Numbered from the stretch's first letter, positions 15,355-24,250 are shown. The stretch is 52,723 nt of DNA from an uncultured Candidatus Saccharibacteria bacterium (GCA_964597895.1 CAZQZS010000005.1:1-52723), one strand, 5' to 3'. Notes: generated by a model not told the origin, from the letters alone. Translations and numbers: made by a program.

Positions 15355-16725
15355 ATGACAGGCAAAGAAATAATTACCGAAGTTGCCGAAGCTCCGGCTA
15401 AGGCGCTAGAGTCGGCTATGCTGCAAAGCCAGCACGCGTTGCATAGCATCAACAAGCCACTGCGCGAAGCTGAGGACTATTGGTATTCCTTGGGCCCTGG
15501 GATCACCACCGGCGCTTCTGACGATGATCCATCTGGAATCGCCACTTATTCTCAGGCGGGCGCTATGTTTGGCTATTCTTTGTTGTGGCTGGCTCCGCTC
15601 ACATTCCCGCTTATGGTGGCTGTGCAGGAAATGTGCGCCCGCATCGGTTTGGCTACAGGCAAGGGTCTTGCCGCCAATATTCGCTCACAATATCGCTTGG
15701 GGGTGCTGTATGTTCTGACCGGCATTTTATTTGTTACCAACACTTTTAACATCGGTGCAGATCTGGGCGCCATGGCAGCAGCCGGACAGCTGATTTTTCC
15801 TTCTTTCAACTTTATTACTTTTCTCGCTTTGTTTACTATTGTTAGTCTGGGGATGCAGATCTTTGTTTCGTATGCCAACTACGCTAGATTTTTAAAATAT
15901 CTTACGCTTGTTTTGTTCCTCTATGTGCTGACCGCCTTAACACTGGACAACCTTCCCTGGAATGAAATTTGGCGGAACACGATTTTGCCAAACATTACAT
16001 GGTCTAAAAGCATCATCATAATGATTTGCGCGATTCTTGGAACCACAATTTCGCCGTACTTATTTTTTTGGCAGACTGCCTCGGAGGTGGAAGCGCGCAA
16101 ACAGGAAGGCCGCATCTCGCCCAAACTTCGACATCAATTAGTGACCAAAAAAGAAGTCCGGCGCATGCGCTTGGATGTTGTAGTTGGTATGTTCATCTCA
16201 AATTTAGTGATGTTCTTCATTATTGTGACTTGCGCCGCAGTGCTATTTCCTCAGGGTGTCATGGTTGAATCAGCAGAGCAGGCGGCTTTAGCTCTTCGTC
16301 CTCTGGCGGGCAATCAAGCTTACATGCTTTTTGCTCTTGGTATTATCGGCACGGGCTTGTTGGCTGTGCCAGTATTGGCGGGCAGTTCTGCTTACGCATT
16401 GGCCGAAAGCTTCAAGTGGTCTTCAGGATTAAACAAAGGCTTGAGCCATGCTCGCGCTTTTTACGGCGTCATAATCATCGCTATGTTTTTCGGCCTACTC
16501 ATGAATTTCATCGGAATTAATCCGATTGAAGCGTTGGTTTATTCCGCTGTGTTAAACGGTATTGTGGCACCGGTAATTCTGTACTTTATAGTGAAGATCA
16601 GCTCGGACAAGAATATAATGGGCAAATGGGTAAACCGTTCGGTCGTTACCTGGATAGGGTATGGTGTGGTCGTGCTTATGACAGTGGCGGCTCTCGGCGC
16701 TATAGCTGCCTTAATTGAGCTTTGA
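15355..16725 (+). CDS. NRAMP-family divalent metal cation transporter
   Basis: GPGITTGASDDDPSGIATYSQAGA, GTTISPYLFFWQ, about 11 TM helices. Confidence 0.9.
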   Translation: MTGKEIITEVAEAPAKALESAMLQSQHALHSINKPLREAEDYWYSLGPGITTGASDDDPSGIATYSQAGAMFGYSLLWLAPLTFPLMVAVQEMCARIGLATGKGLAANIRSQYRLGVLYVLTGILFVTNTFNIGADLGAMAAAGQLIFPSFNFITFLALFTIVSLGMQIFVSYANYARFLKYLTLVLFLYVLTALTLDNLPWNEIWRNTILPNITWSKSIIIMICAILGTTISPYLFFWQTASEVEARKQEGRISPKLRHQLVTKKEVRRMRLDVVVGMFISNLVMFFIIVTCAAVLFPQGVMVESAEQAALALRPLAGNQAYMLFALGIIGTGLLAVPVLAGSSAYALAESFKWSSGLNKGLSHARAFYGVIIIAMFFGLLMNFIGINPIEALVYSAVLNGIVAPVILYFIVKISSDKNIMGKWVNRSVVTWIGYGVVVLMTVAALGAIAALIEL

Positions 16726-17174: not shown

Positions 17175-17204
17175 GAACCCGAGAAAATTCTCGGGTTCGT
17201 TTTT
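17175..17204. terminator. Intrinsic terminator between convergent genes
   Basis: GAACCCGAGA-AAAT-TCTCGGGTTC-GTTTTT. Confidence 0.75.
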
Positions 17205-18195
17205 ATTTTAGGTTTTGATTGAAGAAATTGATTGTGCGCTGCATGACCGTTCCCCATGCCGGACCAAACTCATGCCCTTCGCCAGGGTACTCGTGCAGAA
17301 TCACTTCTTTGCCTGCTGCCTGTAGAGCATCACGCGTGCGGTAGCTCCACTCTAGAGGTACATCTGCATCATTGGTGCCATGGTTAATCATGACAGGGGA
17401 CTTAATGCGGTCAAAAAAGTTGACCGGCGACAGGTTGTCCCAAAATTCTGGATTGGTTTCCGGATCGCCATGTTGCTGTTTGATTTGCTCAACTGCTTCT
17501 GGTCGGCTCTTTGTCCAGCGGTAGTAGCTTTCGCGCACGTCGGAAGACACCGGAGCATACAGCATGTAAGCGTCTACCAATTCTGGCTGAACAACCATGA
17601 CAGCTTGAGCAATGCCGCCGCCCATGGAGTGTCCGATCATAGCGATGCGGTTGGTGTCAGCGTAAGTCAGGTTTGCTGACTTGAGTGCATAGATAGCATT
17701 AATCACATCCTCTATGTATCCGATTCTGATGTCGCCTTCTACATTGTCGTCCTTGGATGACTGTGCGTGATTGCGATAGTCAGGATGGATTACAATGTAA
17801 CCACGAGCAGCAAAGTAATCTTGTTCGCGACGCAGACCGCGACCATTGGTGTAGATGGCAGGATCGATGTAGCCATGGTTCATAATTACGACTTGGAAGG
17901 GACCGGTGCCTTTCGGTACGTTCATAATTCCCGAGATGGTAAGCTCCCCGCTTTTGTATGTAATGTAGTAGCGAGTGTAGGTAGCGGTTTCAGATTGCAC
18001 TTGGCCAATCTGCAAATCTCGGCCGTCAAATTGTTTTTGCATGAGCGCTTGCAGGGAAGTGGGGTTCACAATTTCACCGCCCTCGGTTTTGATTTGCTGG
18101 TTTGGGTTTACTGTTTGGCTGCTTTCCGTAGATTGCTGGCTGCAGCCCACTGCTATCATAGAGATAGCTATAAAAATAAGGATAATATACTTCAT
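17203..18195 (-). CDS. Alpha/beta-hydrolase lipoprotein (S9 / prolyl-oligopeptidase-like)
   Basis: Start revised from 18315 to MKYIILIFIAISMIAVG|C lipobox; GHSMGG, HGTNDADV, GEGHEF catalytic triad. Confidence 0.85.
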   Translation of the reverse strand: MKYIILIFIAISMIAVGCSQQSTESSQTVNPNQQIKTEGGEIVNPTSLQALMQKQFDGRDLQIGQVQSETATYTRYYITYKSGELTISGIMNVPKGTGPFQVVIMNHGYIDPAIYTNGRGLRREQDYFAARGYIVIHPDYRNHAQSSKDDNVEGDIRIGYIEDVINAIYALKSANLTYADTNRIAMIGHSMGGGIAQAVMVVQPELVDAYMLYAPVSSDVRESYYRWTKSRPEAVEQIKQQHGDPETNPEFWDNLSPVNFFDRIKSPVMINHGTNDADVPLEWSYRTRDALQAAGKEVILHEYPGEGHEFGPAWGTVMQRTINFFNQNLK

Positions 18196-18232
18196 ATAGT
18201 TACTATAACGCATTTTGGCAGATTTTATATCA

Positions 18233-18259
18233 AAAAAAGACCCTTTTATCGCAGGGTCA
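18233..18259 (-). terminator. Intrinsic terminator
   Basis: Minus strand GACCCT-loop-AGGGTC-T7 directly after the 71-aa ORF. Confidence 0.7.
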
Positions 18260-18472
18260 GGCGATTTCCTCATCCGATAACCTAAGTTTATATCTTTGAG
18301 GGTGGCAGAGTTCACAGCTATAATCAGGGATTATTAGCGGCCCGACTGGGCCTTGTTCTTGTTGAACAGCCCAAGCCCAAGCAAAGACCGAACCGTCAGG
18401 GATAATTGATTCATGCCGGCCAGACTCGCATCGCCAAGTGCGCTGCGGCCCCACAAAGTGTTGATCTTTCAT
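18257..18472 (-). CDS. Small Cys/His-containing protein (71 aa), possible metal-binding
   Basis: GGAGG SD 6 nt upstream of ATG 18472; C-x4-H and CELCH motifs; terminator downstream. Confidence 0.6.
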   Translation of the reverse strand: MKDQHFVGPQRTWRCESGRHESIIPDGSVFAWAWAVQQEQGPVGPLIIPDYSCELCHPQRYKLRLSDEEIA

Positions 18473-18814
18473 TAGCATCCTCCAATTGATTCAAAAATAA
18501 ATACCATCCTTACATCCTTAGCTAAAAAGAATATAACAATGGTATTTATTTTGGTGGAGATGGCTATTCGGCAAGCTCAGGGCAGGCGGGAGTCTGTTTA
18601 ACTCCCACTATACCATTAACAAACATTCCACTTCGTGAAATCTTTGTTAATGATGGACATCATCTCAAAAAACTTGGAACCCATTCAAGATTACATCCTG
18701 CGGTGGTATCTTGTGTTGTTTGATGTCCAAAGATACAGCATTTGCGGGCATACTAGCAAGTTCCAGCTATTGAAGAGCCGATATCTGTAGTTTTTTTAGA
18801 TTTTCCTCATGCTC

Positions 18815-18843
18815 TTGACATAAATCCCGAAATTCGTTATAGT
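18815..18843 (+). promoter_or_regulatory. sigma70-type promoter for islet peptide operon
   Basis: TTGACA (18815-18820)-17 nt-TATAGT (18838-18843). Confidence 0.8.
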
Positions 18844-18924
18844 TGGGCTGACCTTGGAAACTAGGTTTTTGCCTGCTATCTGGCAGACAAAGTCAATTTT
18901 ATAGACTAAGGAGGGGTCAAACGC

Positions 18925-19026
18925 ATGAAGAAATTCAAGTTTCGTTCACGAGTGCGCAAGCCGAAGGCGAAAAACCTGAAGCTCGCATCAACGTGTTCCG
19001 GCGGCGACGATAGCAACAACTGCTAA
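18925..19026 (+). CDS. 33-aa peptide, basic N-terminus and Cys-flanked C-terminus (not in ORF track)
   Basis: MKKFKFRSRVRKPKAKNLKLASTCSGGDDSNNC; TAAGGAGG SD; near-consensus promoter; downstream hairpin 19052-19082. Confidence 0.7.
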   Translation: MKKFKFRSRVRKPKAKNLKLASTCSGGDDSNNC

Positions 19027-19096
19027 TTGCTATGGAAGCCTTTCTACAACATTGGTCACTGCAAGTTTTCTTGTGTGGCCAATTATTTATATAAAG

Positions 19097-19741
19097 ATGA
19101 AGATAAATATAATATACTCGGACCAAATTAAGCTGAGTCCAGCGTTAAAGCTTAAAATCAATAAGACCATTAGGAACACTTACTCCAAGGCGGAGGATTT
19201 GATAGAGCTGAAACCGCTAACCTTTTTCGTTTATGGTAATCCCGGTATAGATGTTAAAAGAGTCGGAGGCTACACTCCATCGGGAAGCGTTATCCAAATT
19301 GCTTTAAACCCTAAATCTAGAATTACGGCGGCATATTTGGACCTGCTTTCGATGACCGTAGCTCATGAGCTTCATCACGCTGCAAGATGGAATGGGATAG
19401 GTTTTGGAGATACTCTTTTTGATGTGCTGATTAGCGAGGGTATGGGGAAACTGTTTGAAGTAGAGGTTACTGGCTTGGAATTGGATACGCTGATAGCTAA
19501 ATTCGGCACGGACGAGGTGAAGAGATGGTATTCAATAGCAAAAAAAGAGTTTCTTTCTGAAAAGTATTCTTACGCCGACTGGTTTTTTGGCTCCGAAGCC
19601 AGAGCGATTCCTAAACGGATGGGTTACGCTTTGGGTTGTTATATTGTGAGCGAATATATGAGACTCAAAAAGCTCAAGCCGTCCCAGTTAGTAAATGTCA
19701 AAAGCGACAAAATCTATGCCACGATTATCAAAGCCTTATAA
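19097..19741 (+). CDS. Putative Zn-dependent metallopeptidase (DUF2268-like gluzincin)
   Basis: TVAHELHHAAR (HExxH), LISEGMG, WFFGS...RMGYALG; start revised from 19052 to MKINIIYS. Confidence 0.8.
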   Translation: MKINIIYSDQIKLSPALKLKINKTIRNTYSKAEDLIELKPLTFFVYGNPGIDVKRVGGYTPSGSVIQIALNPKSRITAAYLDLLSMTVAHELHHAARWNGIGFGDTLFDVLISEGMGKLFEVEVTGLELDTLIAKFGTDEVKRWYSIAKKEFLSEKYSYADWFFGSEARAIPKRMGYALGCYIVSEYMRLKKLKPSQLVNVKSDKIYATIIKAL

Positions 19742-20018
19742 AATTACTTATATTGATTCGCCAAATTTTTCCTCAGGGTTTGAGCCTTTTATAAAGGAAG
19801 AAATCAATATGCTAATGAAGAATTTGGATAAGCCTAAGACTGCGATCCAATTTGTGGTTTTCGAACAACTCACCAAGGCCTCCCGAATGGGTTACGCATT
19901 AACCTCCGCTAAAGGACTTATCGGTATTGGCTTGAATAGCAAGCTAAAAAATTTAAAAGAAATTGTTAAGACAAATCTTCCGGCAGATTTAAAGATAAAA
20001 ATACAATCATTACAATGA
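19695..20018 (+). CDS. Hypothetical protein, weakly similar to N-terminal half of upstream peptidase
   Basis: Open 107 codons, start uncertain (ATG 19695 or 19716); overlaps peptidase 3' end. Confidence 0.5.
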   Translation: MSKATKSMPRLSKPYKITYIDSPNFSSGFEPFIKEEINMLMKNLDKPKTAIQFVVFEQLTKASRMGYALTSAKGLIGIGLNSKLKNLKEIVKTNLPADLKIKIQSLQ

Positions 20019-20034
20019 TTGGAGGTGAAAGCAA

Positions 20035-20118
20035 ATGACTCGTAAAGAGCGAATCAGGCGCATAGCTGAGAAGCTTTGCGCAGCTAAGTGCGCTGCCTGT
20101 CAGGGCTGCACATCATGA
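20035..20118 (+). CDS. 27-aa Cys-rich peptide (not in ORF track)
   Basis: MTRKERIRRIAEKLCAAKCAACQGCTS; GGAGGTGA SD at 20021-20028; two hairpins downstream (20119-20161). Confidence 0.7.
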   Translation: MTRKERIRRIAEKLCAAKCAACQGCTS

Positions 20119-20185
20119 AGCCGAAAGGCTAAGGGCGTAGTACATTCAATATGTGCTACGCTCAATTTTAATATATACTTAATTT

Positions 20186-20776
20186 ATGGATAATAAATCT
20201 ACAAGCAATTGGGATAATTACTACGAAAATACAAAGAATTATCCTCCAGCTCCATTATTAGTTAAAGCCTTAGAGTACGTAGAAACAATAGGCAAGGCTA
20301 TTGATATAGGTGGAGGCGGAACATTAAAAGATACCTTATTTTTACTCTCCAAAGGTTTTGATACTACTGTAGTTGATAAAGAGGATGTGATAGCAGTGTC
20401 AGTAGAAAAGGTTGGTTCTGATAAACTTCATTTTTTCGTTAGCAGTTTCTCTGATTTTGATTTCCCTGTAAATGAGTATGATTTAGCAGCTGCTATCTAC
20501 TCATTGCCTTTTACTCCGCCAAAAGATTTCGAAAGAGTGTTTGAAAAAGTTAAGTCTTCTTTAGTACAAAATGGCGTATTTTGTGGTCAGTTTTTTGGTG
20601 ATCGCGATGGATGGAAAGACAATTCTAATTTAACATTTGTTACAAAAGAGAAGGCAATGTCTATGTTAGACGGCATGGAGGTCCTCCATTTTGAAGAAAA
20701 AGAATTTGATGGCAAAACAGCCGATGGCTCGGCAAAGCATTGGCATGTGTTCGATATTATTGCTAGAAAGTTATAA
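20186..20776 (+). CDS. Class I SAM-dependent methyltransferase (TehB-like)
   Basis: AIDIGGGG motif I, acidic VVD motif II, YDLAAAIYSLPF, NGVFCGQFFG, HWHVF; TATACT 7 nt before ATG. Confidence 0.85.
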   Translation: MDNKSTSNWDNYYENTKNYPPAPLLVKALEYVETIGKAIDIGGGGTLKDTLFLLSKGFDTTVVDKEDVIAVSVEKVGSDKLHFFVSSFSDFDFPVNEYDLAAAIYSLPFTPPKDFERVFEKVKSSLVQNGVFCGQFFGDRDGWKDNSNLTFVTKEKAMSMLDGMEVLHFEEKEFDGKTADGSAKHWHVFDIIARKL

Positions 20777-20852: not shown

Positions 20853-21234
20853 TGGTGGAGATGGCGGGAGTTAAACCCGCGTCCAAAACTGGTTCACCAT
20901 CTCATTGGTCACAAGCTTAGTCCGTTTAAGTGCCTTTAGTCTAACAACGGACAACTAAACTAAAGGTTGATTAACAACTATTCGGCTGAGTCGCGTTAAT
21001 CAAACGACGCAGCTATAACTCCTAATAAAGCAGTGACTCTGTGGCCGGAGTAGACAACAGGACTGCGCTTTCACCTAAGTTAGGCTACAGCAGGTGCGTA
21101 GTCAGCAGAAAATGCTGCTACGACCTTGTTCCATGCGTTAGCACGTATGAATGCTTGTAAGATTTACGAGCTTGCAAGCTGGCTCGGCTTGTATATGAAA
21201 TGATGTCAAAGTTCTGTCAAAATCCGGCATCCCC
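20853..21234 (-). ncRNA. ssrA: tmRNA (transfer-messenger RNA)
   Basis: 5' GGGGATGCCGGATTTTGAC, 3' GACGCGGGTTTAACTCCCGCCATCTCCACCA; tag ORF ANAWNKVVAAFSADYAPAVA at 21080-21142; smpB nearby. Confidence 0.95.
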
Positions 21235-23812: not shown

Positions 23813-24250
23813 TTATCGGTCGGTGGCCTTACGGGTTTCGCGCTTGGTATCGCGCTCTTTGATGTACTCGCGCTTGTCAGTTTTCTTGCGGCCGCGGCCA
23901 ACTCCGATTTTTAGCTTTACAAGATTGCGGGGACCAATGAAAATTTCTAGTGGAATAATGACGGTGCCTTTTTCTTTGCCCACCAGCTGGTTAAGCTCAC
24001 GCTTATTAAGTAGAATTTTTCGGGATTGTGTGGGTTCGTATCCTTCTTGCGGGGCATAACGGTAAGGACCGATGTGTGCATTTACCAGGCTCGCTCCTGT
24101 GGCTGATACTTTGACGTAGCTGCCTGCCAGCGAGATATTGCCTTCCTTTGCTGATTTGACCTCGCGCCCTTCCAATACTAAACCAGCATCAAAAGTATCT
24201 TTGATGTCGTAATCAAATTTGGCTCGCTTGTTCTGGGCTAAAGATTTCAT
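23813..24250 (-). CDS. smpB: SsrA-binding protein SmpB
   Basis: NKRAKFDY, AGLVLEGREVKS, RKILLNKRE, GRGRKKTDKRE. Confidence 0.97.
   Translation of the reverse strand: MKSLAQNKRAKFDYDIKDTFDAGLVLEGREVKSAKEGNISLAGSYVKVSATGASLVNAHIGPYRYAPQEGYEPTQSRKILLNKRELNQLVGKEKGTVIIPLEIFIGPRNLVKLKIGVGRGRKKTDKREYIKERDTKRETRKATDR

Follow-up and report, generated by a model that had tools for sequence, protein, structure and literature searches.

Does a frame of only 27 codons, four of them for cysteine, encode a protein, and what would such a peptide do? The question is raised by a stretch of 52,723 nucleotides from an uncultured Candidatus Saccharibacteria bacterium (GCA_964597895.1 CAZQZS010000005.1:1-52723), called the window here, in which a cysteine-rich open reading frame (ORF) precedes a methyltransferase gene. 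The initial annotation had proposed a minimal metal- or Fe-S-binding peptide, or a substrate for the neighbouring methyltransferase or peptidase. Our comparison of ten loci indicates that the ORF is a real small-protein gene, from which we infer its translation, and that it belongs to a peptide family that shows clear purifying selection and moves among distant lineages of Patescibacteria together with three enzymes. In the window, the peptide gene, its signals and the next gene are arranged as follows.

20021..20028, plus strand: Shine-Dalgarno sequence GGAGGTGA, with a gap of 9 nucleotides between GGAGG and ATG
20035..20118, plus strand: peptide ORF of 27 codons and 84 nucleotides (ATG at 20035, TGA at 20116-20118), encoding MTRKERIRRIAEKLCAAKCAACQGCTS
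20119..20130, plus strand: small hairpin AGCC-GAAA-GGCT, directly 3' of the peptide stop codon
20133..20169, plus strand: intrinsic terminator found by a terminator scan, with a 13-pair stem and the loop TCAAT (20133-20163), then AATTTT
20186..20776, plus strand: class I S-adenosylmethionine (SAM) methyltransferase, TehB-like, 196 amino acids (Pfam Methyltransf_25/11 and TehB)

The Shine-Dalgarno site, the 27-codon ORF and the four-cysteine spacing that the initial annotation described are all present in the window sequence, as is its AGCC-GAAA-GGCT hairpin at 20119-20130. Its second hairpin, GCGTAG...CTACGC (20135-20161), is also there and is actually part of the 13-pair terminator stem at 20133-20163. 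This terminator begins 15 nucleotides past the stop codon, upstream of the methyltransferase gene, and its T-run TTTT lies at 20166-20169. The cysteines are residues 15, 19, 22 and 25, giving the pattern C-x3-C-x2-C-x2-C, which occurs once in the six frames of the window against 0.05 occurrences expected from shuffles. The pattern is more than chance. A GGAGG 4-12 nucleotides upstream of the start was found for only 4 window ORFs of at least 100 codons; since it is rare at gene starts here and is kept in all ten peptide loci, it is a specific, conserved feature of the peptide gene.

A gene of 84 nucleotides is too short for gene callers, so that the family is invisible in protein databases; it was previously unannotated, with no gene call in any locus examined. 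Homologues were gathered via the neighbouring genes, that is, the methyltransferase and then a UCP032817-like protein (UCP, described below), and the peptide was sought in six-frame translations. Such a homologue search, which the initial annotation had proposed, brought up nine further loci that carry the peptide gene with the same signals. Together with the window they make ten independent peptide loci from different Patescibacteria lineages. Among the relatives found, the nearest is a Candidatus Saccharibacteria metagenome-assembled genome (MAG), GCA_964594755.1 (L001/L004), whose ArgRS is 92% identical. By way of the methyltransferase we obtained MTRKERIRRIAEKLCAAKCAACQGCTS, identical in the window and L001, as well as MTRKQRIKRIAKKLCAANCAACQGCQS (L005), MTRQERIKRIAEMLCATNCAACQGCQS (L017), MTRQERITRIAEKLCAATCAACQGCTT (L212/213), TREERITHIAEQLCAVKCAACQGCTS (L208/209, TTG start), MTRQERIKYIAENLYAAKCAACTGCTS (L204-207) and MTRQERIKRIAEKLYSAKCASCQGCTT (L210/211). 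Sampling by way of the UCP032817-like protein gave TRKERIKRIVKKLSASDCSACQGCTS (L216/217, GTG start) and MTRQQRIKKIAARLMASTCAACQGCTS (L218). The peptide had no match in Pfam or NCBIfam (E up to 1), in PADLOC, or, by sequence, in the PDB, and the literature on its motif strings and on ribosomally synthesised and post-translationally modified peptides (RiPPs) in Patescibacteria contained nothing relevant.

The length is exactly 27 codons in all ten loci, with ATG, GTG or TTG as the start and all three stop codons in use. Ten residues are invariant (T2, R3, R6, I7, I10, L14, C19, C22, G24 and C25) and five more positions are nearly fixed, with A or S at both 20 and 21, Q or T at 23, T or Q at 26 and S or T at 27. 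Position 15 is C, Y, S or M, and carries Tyr, Ser or Met in 4 of the 9 distinct homologues. The C-x3-C-x2-C spacing to which the initial annotation had drawn attention is therefore not conserved, its first cysteine being replaced in relatives. The aligned sequences define a different family motif: a predicted basic amphipathic N-terminal helix, followed by C-x-x-C-x-G-C-x-(S/T)-COOH. I7, I10 and L14 have a heptad spacing compatible with a short coiled-coil dimer. The radical SAM [4Fe-4S] motif was considered and rejected, since the peptide has 27 amino acids as against about 200 or more for that domain, the first cysteine is variable and there is no Pfam match.

Outside these loci, the Moraniibacteriota locus L214 (3776-3892) encodes a 38-amino-acid peptide, MQVETIADAKTSAQKDQVIARILAQLKAGNGACQGCES, which ends in ...IARILAQLKAGNGACQGCES and keeps I-x-R-I-x-x-x-L and A-C-Q-G-C-x-S. 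It has its own Shine-Dalgarno site and terminator, is located upstream of UCP-TauD, and is a probable divergent family member, judged by a profile E of 0.015 in a small search. The 27-residue members have three invariant cysteines (CxxCxxC) and the L214 member only two; a dimer could complete a metal site. The peptide profile found no match in 66 loci where methyltransferase identity does not exceed 57%, nor in L003, where it is 77%. A degenerate DNA pattern for CAAKCAAC, run on a metagenome collection, was swamped by an out-of-frame conserved gene (...YAPAITPCAAKCAACW...) and gave no true homologue. The peptide-terminator unit is duplicated in tandem in L208 (1778-1846) and L209 (1693-1761), where the second copy, directly upstream of the intact one, is truncated to codons 6-27, lacks a start codon and has its own degenerate hairpin.

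The ORF alignment varies in the manner of a coding sequence. Among 26 codons, 16 first, 11 second and 25 third positions are variable, and over the ten loci Thr2 is encoded by all four of its codons and Gly24 by three. The mean pairwise synonymous difference (pS) was 0.65 and the nonsynonymous one (pN) 0.18, with a mean pN/pS of 0.28 and synonymous sites near saturation. GGAGG(T) stands 5-9 nucleotides upstream of the start in 10/10 loci, and a strong stem-loop with a T-run lies within 10-30 nucleotides of the stop, again in all ten. Since the terminator stems are unrelated in sequence, it is the structure and not the sequence that is conserved. Whatever the place of the peptide gene in the cluster, such a terminator comes after it, L214 included. 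The small hairpin adjacent to the stop codon is lineage-specific: in L001 it reads AGCT-GAAA-AGCT, so that a C-G pair of the window is replaced by U-A in a compensatory manner, L017, L204 and L212 have a hairpin of other sequence (CCTGC-N5-GCAGG) at the same position, and in L005, L208 and L218 it is absent or weak.

All peptide loci apart from the window share one gene order: UCP032817-like protein, TauD-like dioxygenase, peptide, methyltransferase. This order is kept in nine distinct loci besides the window (L001, L017, L204-213, L216-218 and L005), eight of them complete and L005 on a short contig. The UCP032817-like protein (PF27765) has about 165 amino acids and is all-helical; the TauD-family dioxygenase (PF02668) has about 220, with the HxD...H iron ligands present. 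The MAG labels are Saccharibacteria, Colwellbacteria, Doudnabacteria, FCPU426 and 'Patescibacteria group', with different genes on the flanks. UCP identity is 64-75% among MAGs under the labels Saccharibacteria, Colwellbacteria, Doudnabacteria, Andersenbacteria and others; this identity across distant lineages, together with the differing flanks, indicates that the cassette is horizontally mobile. A short peptide gene beside potential modifying enzymes and conserved along with them, which is the general mark of a RiPP precursor, is what these loci contain. No radical SAM protein was found with Pfam among the called genes of L001, L204-213 and L216-218.

The UCP model (pLDDT 91) had no structural match in the PDB, the best E being 0.34, and a sequence search against the PDB found nothing. 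Invariant residues include WLWLNA, D72, W75, H76, H99 and a C-terminal P-C-E. A profile search returned 5,494 cluster representatives at E <=0.001, and the best 149 of these were inspected for fusions. One (P0255) is a fusion of UCP to TauD, one (P0242) a fusion to a thiopurine S-methyltransferase (TPMT-type; PF05724, E 1e-59), and 7 of the 149 have a C-terminal extension of 55-75 amino acids, a helix and then a Cys-rich end, as in ...AVIAEILATRFKNRYCRGCGVYCTCRRKCTD and ...YYCGTNCGPYCSCSDADAS. The proteins noted with fusions or tails are P0242, P0255, P0169, P0200, P0245, P0183, P0234, P0217 and P0250; one of the seven tailed proteins is named 'glycine-rich domain-containing protein' by NCBI. 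Since UCP is fused to TauD, to an S-methyltransferase and to Cys-rich tails, the parts of the cassette appear to be functionally coupled. In three loci with a distant methyltransferase (L038, L049 and L053), the gene just 5' of the methyltransferase encodes a UCP-like or GRDP-like protein. The GRDP-like proteins of L049 and L053 end in Cys/Gly tails, and that of L049 passes the Pfam GRDP-like threshold. By analogy, the fused Cys-rich tails may be the counterpart of the free peptide. The literature on UCP032817 held nothing relevant, and that on GRDP/DUF1399 consisted of plant physiology papers, with no biochemical function. Distant UCP032817-like homologues of 138 amino acids and 33-35% identity were also seen in Legionella (L219/L220, 4001-4417); they adjoin DotU and IcmF-family genes there, without TauD, methyltransferase or peptide.

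The methyltransferase gene starts 67-91 nucleotides past the peptide stop in 10/10 loci, including three that were sampled through a different gene. Its AlphaFold model (pLDDT 93) most closely resembles a Clostridium acetobutylicum methyltransferase that is uncharacterised (2p8j) and TehB from E. coli and Salmonella; in Foldseek, 2xvm, 2xva and 4dq0 gave TM scores of 0.78-0.80 with E about 1e-13. Among characterised structures, E. coli TehB (TM 0.80) matches best; sequence identity to TehB is 19-20%. The protein stays far below the curated TehB cut-offs, with 28.6 bits against 218 in NCBIfam and 17.8 against 20.4 in Pfam, and an exact look-up of the window methyltransferase gave no match. The gene has no Shine-Dalgarno sequence and, in most loci, a TATACT/TAGAAT/TATAAT-like box 6-7 nucleotides before the ATG (window 20170-20188 for box and ATG region; equivalents in L001, L204, L210 and L017). 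From the position of the box and the missing Shine-Dalgarno sequence, the methyltransferase mRNA may be leaderless. The substrate link of the initial annotation has thus held for one of its two enzymes: the methyltransferase adjoins the peptide in all ten loci and UCP is fused to thiopurine S-methyltransferase and to Cys-rich tails, but no link to a peptidase was found.

What does the peptide do? We tentatively prefer, at somewhat less than an even chance, the reading that it is modified and serves as a precursor or scaffold peptide of RiPP-like or cofactor-like kind, not as a metalloprotein in its own right. Its N-terminal amphipathic helix (T2, R3, R6, I7, I10, L14) would dock it on a partner, of which the UCP-like protein is the likeliest, and the C-terminal C-x-x-C-x-G-C-x-(S/T)-COOH would be the reactive part and the target of the TehB/TPMT-like methyltransferase and the dioxygenase, for example by S-methylation of cysteine. 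The strong Shine-Dalgarno sequence and the terminator right after the gene would supply the peptide in excess over the enzymes, as is usual for precursor genes. In the window, recombination at the Shine-Dalgarno sequence has truncated the cassette, leaving only peptide and methyltransferase. A more specific proposal, which we hold to be rather doubtful as it stands, is that a new system of peptide modification or thiol chemistry has the peptide as its free-standing substrate, with UCP032817/GRDP-like, TauD-type and TehB/TPMT-like proteins acting on the C-terminal C-x-x-C-x-G-C, for instance through S-methylation and oxidation of cysteine. If true, the large UCP032817/GRDP-like (DUF1399) superfamily, whose GRDP-like members are also studied in plants, would gain its first biochemical function, and there would be a new RiPP-like class in genome-reduced Patescibacteria.

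Several observations weigh against a modified precursor. Translation and modification are both read from sequence. The presumed partners UCP and TauD were not found in the 52.7-kb window. L003 keeps the methyltransferase without the peptide and homologues at most 57% identical never have it, so that the enzyme does not need the peptide. The peptide profile has no significant similarity to the fused Cys-rich tails, so that the parallel between tail and peptide is analogy only and not homology. No protease, transporter or RRE protein is conserved with the cassette, which makes a secreted natural product unlikely. Strict conservation of the core sets the peptide apart from most RiPPs, although PqqA and MftA share this trait. 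In several respects, the same data suit a thiol-based carrier of metals or metalloids just as well.

Such a carrier is the main rival, and we regard it as possible but on the doubtful side. Here the peptide would carry a metal, a metalloid or redox equivalents by its thiols without covalent modification, with the helix serving for dimerisation or docking and CxxCxxC binding Zn, Fe or an Fe-S cluster. Alternatively, selenite, tellurite or arsenite would be captured as an RS-X-SR adduct and presented to the TehB-like methyltransferase. TehB methylates tellurite and selenite, and TehB is the structure to which the methyltransferase is closest; the fusion partner of UCP in P0242 is likewise a TPMT-type chalcogen/thiol methyltransferase. 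The invariant C-x-x-C-x-G-C with its small residues is typical of metal sites, the heptad spacing of I7, I10 and L14 suits a dimer, and peptide and methyltransferase have stayed together in the window although UCP and TauD are gone from it. A carrier leaves the role of TauD and UCP unexplained, however, and the probable divergent member in L214 has only two cysteines. All members have two residues after the last cysteine, which together with the fixed length of 27 amino acids speaks for an enzyme that recognises the C-terminus and not for a simple chelator. Moreover, no transporter or resistance gene is conserved nearby. Precursor and carrier differ in whether the peptide ends covalently changed. 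As a substrate or as a carrier, the peptide would offer an experimental handle on the UCP032817-like/GRDP-like superfamily and on the role of TehB-like methyltransferases in organisms of minimal metabolism.

The remaining question is why the window lacks the rest of the cassette. The relevant features are the following.

20020..20021, no strand: recombination junction (20020|20021), at the first base of the peptide Shine-Dalgarno sequence
19097..20018, plus strand: foreign left-hand module, DUF2268 (19097-19741) and the 69-amino-acid p69 (19809-20018), in place of UCP and TauD
18257-18478, minus strand: gene of 73 amino acids (MLMKDQHFVGPQRTWRCESGRHESIIPDG...CELCHPQRYKL...), Cys- and His-containing
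17203-18315, minus strand: S9 peptidase, chromosomal backbone

On the left of the junction, window 18615-20020 matches the DUF2268-p69 module of L221 (4515-5924) at 90% identity; on the right, window 20021-20200 matches the peptide-methyltransferase module of L001 (5835-6015) at 94.5%. Further upstream, window 18300-18561 is again 97% identical to L001, while the intervening 1.46 kb is unrelated to the UCP-TauD segment of L001. DUF2268 and p69 are 87-97% identical in protein and 90% in DNA to the module of L221 (5001-8191) and L222-L225. Behind DUF2268-p69, L221 and L223 encode a 729-amino-acid nitroreductase-YcaO fusion and, on the opposite strand, a UbiE-like methyltransferase; L222, L224 and L225 end within the nitroreductase-YcaO gene, the third of the module. 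The DUF2268-p69-YcaO module looks like an azoline/azole-type peptide-modification cluster; p69, which could be a precursor, a partner or an RRE-like protein, has no cysteine and does not look like an obvious precursor. No YcaO gene was found in the window, and tblastn for remnants of UCP and TauD in window 18300-20200 gave only chance-level matches. These alignments indicate that the window locus is a chimera of two modules, that recombination replaced UCP and TauD by DUF2268-p69, and that DUF2268-p69 is not part of the peptide system.

The exchange took place in a variable slot between the 71/73-amino-acid gene and the methyltransferase (window 18562-20020, L001 4437-5834, L003 4021-4195). 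In L001 this slot is filled by UCP-TauD-peptide and in the window by DUF2268-p69-peptide; in L003 it is empty. The locus thus shows two peptide-associated modules, YcaO-type and cassette, shuffled at a variable chromosomal site in Saccharibacteria. The peptidase partner suggested by the initial annotation drops out here: the S9 peptidase is backbone, present both in L001 with the peptide and in L003 without it, and DUF2268 comes from the other module, so that neither peptidase is a partner. The 71-amino-acid gene of L001 and L003 is the counterpart of the 73-amino-acid gene, which is 97% identical in nucleotides to that of L001; it had no Pfam match in L001.

Within the right-hand module, the Shine-Dalgarno sequence and ORF (window 20021-20120, L001 5835-5934) are 99% identical, with 1 of 27 codons changed, synonymously. 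Terminator and spacer are 86-90% and the methyltransferase 68-86% identical, and in neighbouring genes 21-41% of the codons for identical residues are changed. Family-wide, the synonymous sites of the peptide are free to vary. The 99% identity could reflect a short recent gene-conversion tract or a lineage-specific constraint at the nucleotide level. The peptide start lies 16 nucleotides behind p69, and its own terminator and the methyltransferase then follow. A promoter-like site at 19988-20016 was not relied on, since transcription would start within the Shine-Dalgarno site; co-transcription with p69 is more likely than transcription from it. The window copy of the peptide is whole and its expression probably continues, though it may be the orphan of a recently broken cassette.

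It seems unlikely, by contrast, that in this genome the gene is a functionless remnant, intact only because the loss of UCP and TauD is recent. Both genes are missing from the window and the sister lineage L003 has lost the peptide altogether; the sharp junction, with flanks 94.5-97% identical to L001 as against 73-89% for neighbouring genes, suggests a recent exchange. Yet ORF, Shine-Dalgarno sequence and terminator are all intact, the breakpoint spares the Shine-Dalgarno sequence to the nucleotide, and UCP and TauD could lie elsewhere in the genome, beyond the 52.7 kb. A remnant would also concern the state of this locus and not the nature of the family, and is compatible with the precursor reading.

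We consider it very improbable that the ORF is a leader peptide, in which a ribosome stalled at Cys codons by scarce Cys-tRNA would block the terminator and allow read-through into the methyltransferase gene. Polycysteine short ORFs are Cys-responsive attenuators in mycobacteria (bioRxiv 10.1101/834739), and like these our locus has a short multi-Cys ORF upstream with a terminator in between; 3-4 Cys codons fall in the last 13, and the terminator lies 15 nucleotides past the stop, before the next gene. However, the ORFs of the ten loci paired with the 5' arm of the terminator no better than shuffled ORFs (z -1.8 to +0.8), and no antiterminator was found. The non-Cys residues T2, R3, R6, I7, I10, L14 and G24, and indeed the whole peptide and its length, are conserved, neither of which a codon-counting leader needs, and the terminator stems differ in every lineage whereas the ORF is kept. 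In L214, peptide and terminator precede UCP instead. Unlike the mycobacterial case, the start here has a strong Shine-Dalgarno sequence and is not leaderless, and the downstream gene does not belong to cysteine or sulfur assimilation. A structured RNA (small RNA or cis-regulatory element) with a chance open frame, to which the hairpin chain of window 20010-20185 (z = -3.8 against shuffles) and the 99% ORF identity to L001 amid diverging flanks might point, is rejected as extremely unlikely by the 16/11/25 codon-position pattern and the near-saturated synonymous sites, by an RNAalifold covariation term of +0.39, meaning none within the ORF, with several predicted pairs broken, and by the lack of an Rfam match at 19950-20250 (E up to 1), most of the folding energy stemming from the terminator. 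At the gathering threshold, Rfam found only tmRNA and a partial tRNA in the whole window.

How does the peptide compare with known systems? PqqA, for pyrroloquinoline quinone (PQQ), and MftA, for mycofactocin, are precursors of about 23-30 codons that gene callers miss, with a conserved C-terminal motif and an operon shared with modifying enzymes. A hairpin follows their genes and there is no dedicated exporter. What defines these systems is a radical SAM enzyme together with an RRE/PqqD-type chaperone, and the residues on which they act are Glu/Tyr or Val/Tyr. The likeness consists of a tiny unannotated gene with a strict C-terminal motif beside enzymes and with a hairpin after it; the difference lies in the partners, which here are a UCP032817-like protein, a dioxygenase of TauD type and a TehB-like methyltransferase, and in the conserved residues, here Cys and Gly. 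By analogy, the peptide would be most like the tiny precursor genes of peptide-derived cofactors, minus the radical SAM and RRE partners. Ranthipeptide and SCIFF precursors are also short peptides with several cysteines clustered at the C-terminus, but require an adjacent radical SAM/SPASM maturase, of which none was called in the annotated peptide loci, and NCBIfam gave no precursor match.

The resemblance to TehB and bacterial TPMT consists in the TehB fold of the neighbour enzyme and in the UCP-TPMT fusion of P0242, but in sequence the enzyme has only 19-20% identity to TehB. We know of no peptide partner, TauD or UCP-like protein for TehAB or Tpm. With the GRDP-like family (PF07173/DUF1399), UCP shares a D-E-x-W-H-x-[FH]-I-L-H...Y...C core, and some members of the UCP family end in a helix and a Cys-rich tail; the peptide differs in being a separate gene, with no profile similarity to those tails. 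What appears to be new here is a peptide gene in an enzyme cassette with an uncharacterised partner fold.

The other genes around the peptide locus are listed below.

15355-16725: Nramp transporter
20853-21234, minus strand: tmRNA, directly downstream of the methyltransferase, with the tag peptide ANAWNKVVAAFSADYAPAVA
23813-24250, minus strand: smpB, 2.6 kb beyond the tmRNA
Among the genes around the locus: rplT, rpmI and infC
Also among them: two DnaJ-domain proteins, argS and ileS

A HIT-family gene was not seen directly downstream of the methyltransferase in the window; it occupies this place in L001 and L003.

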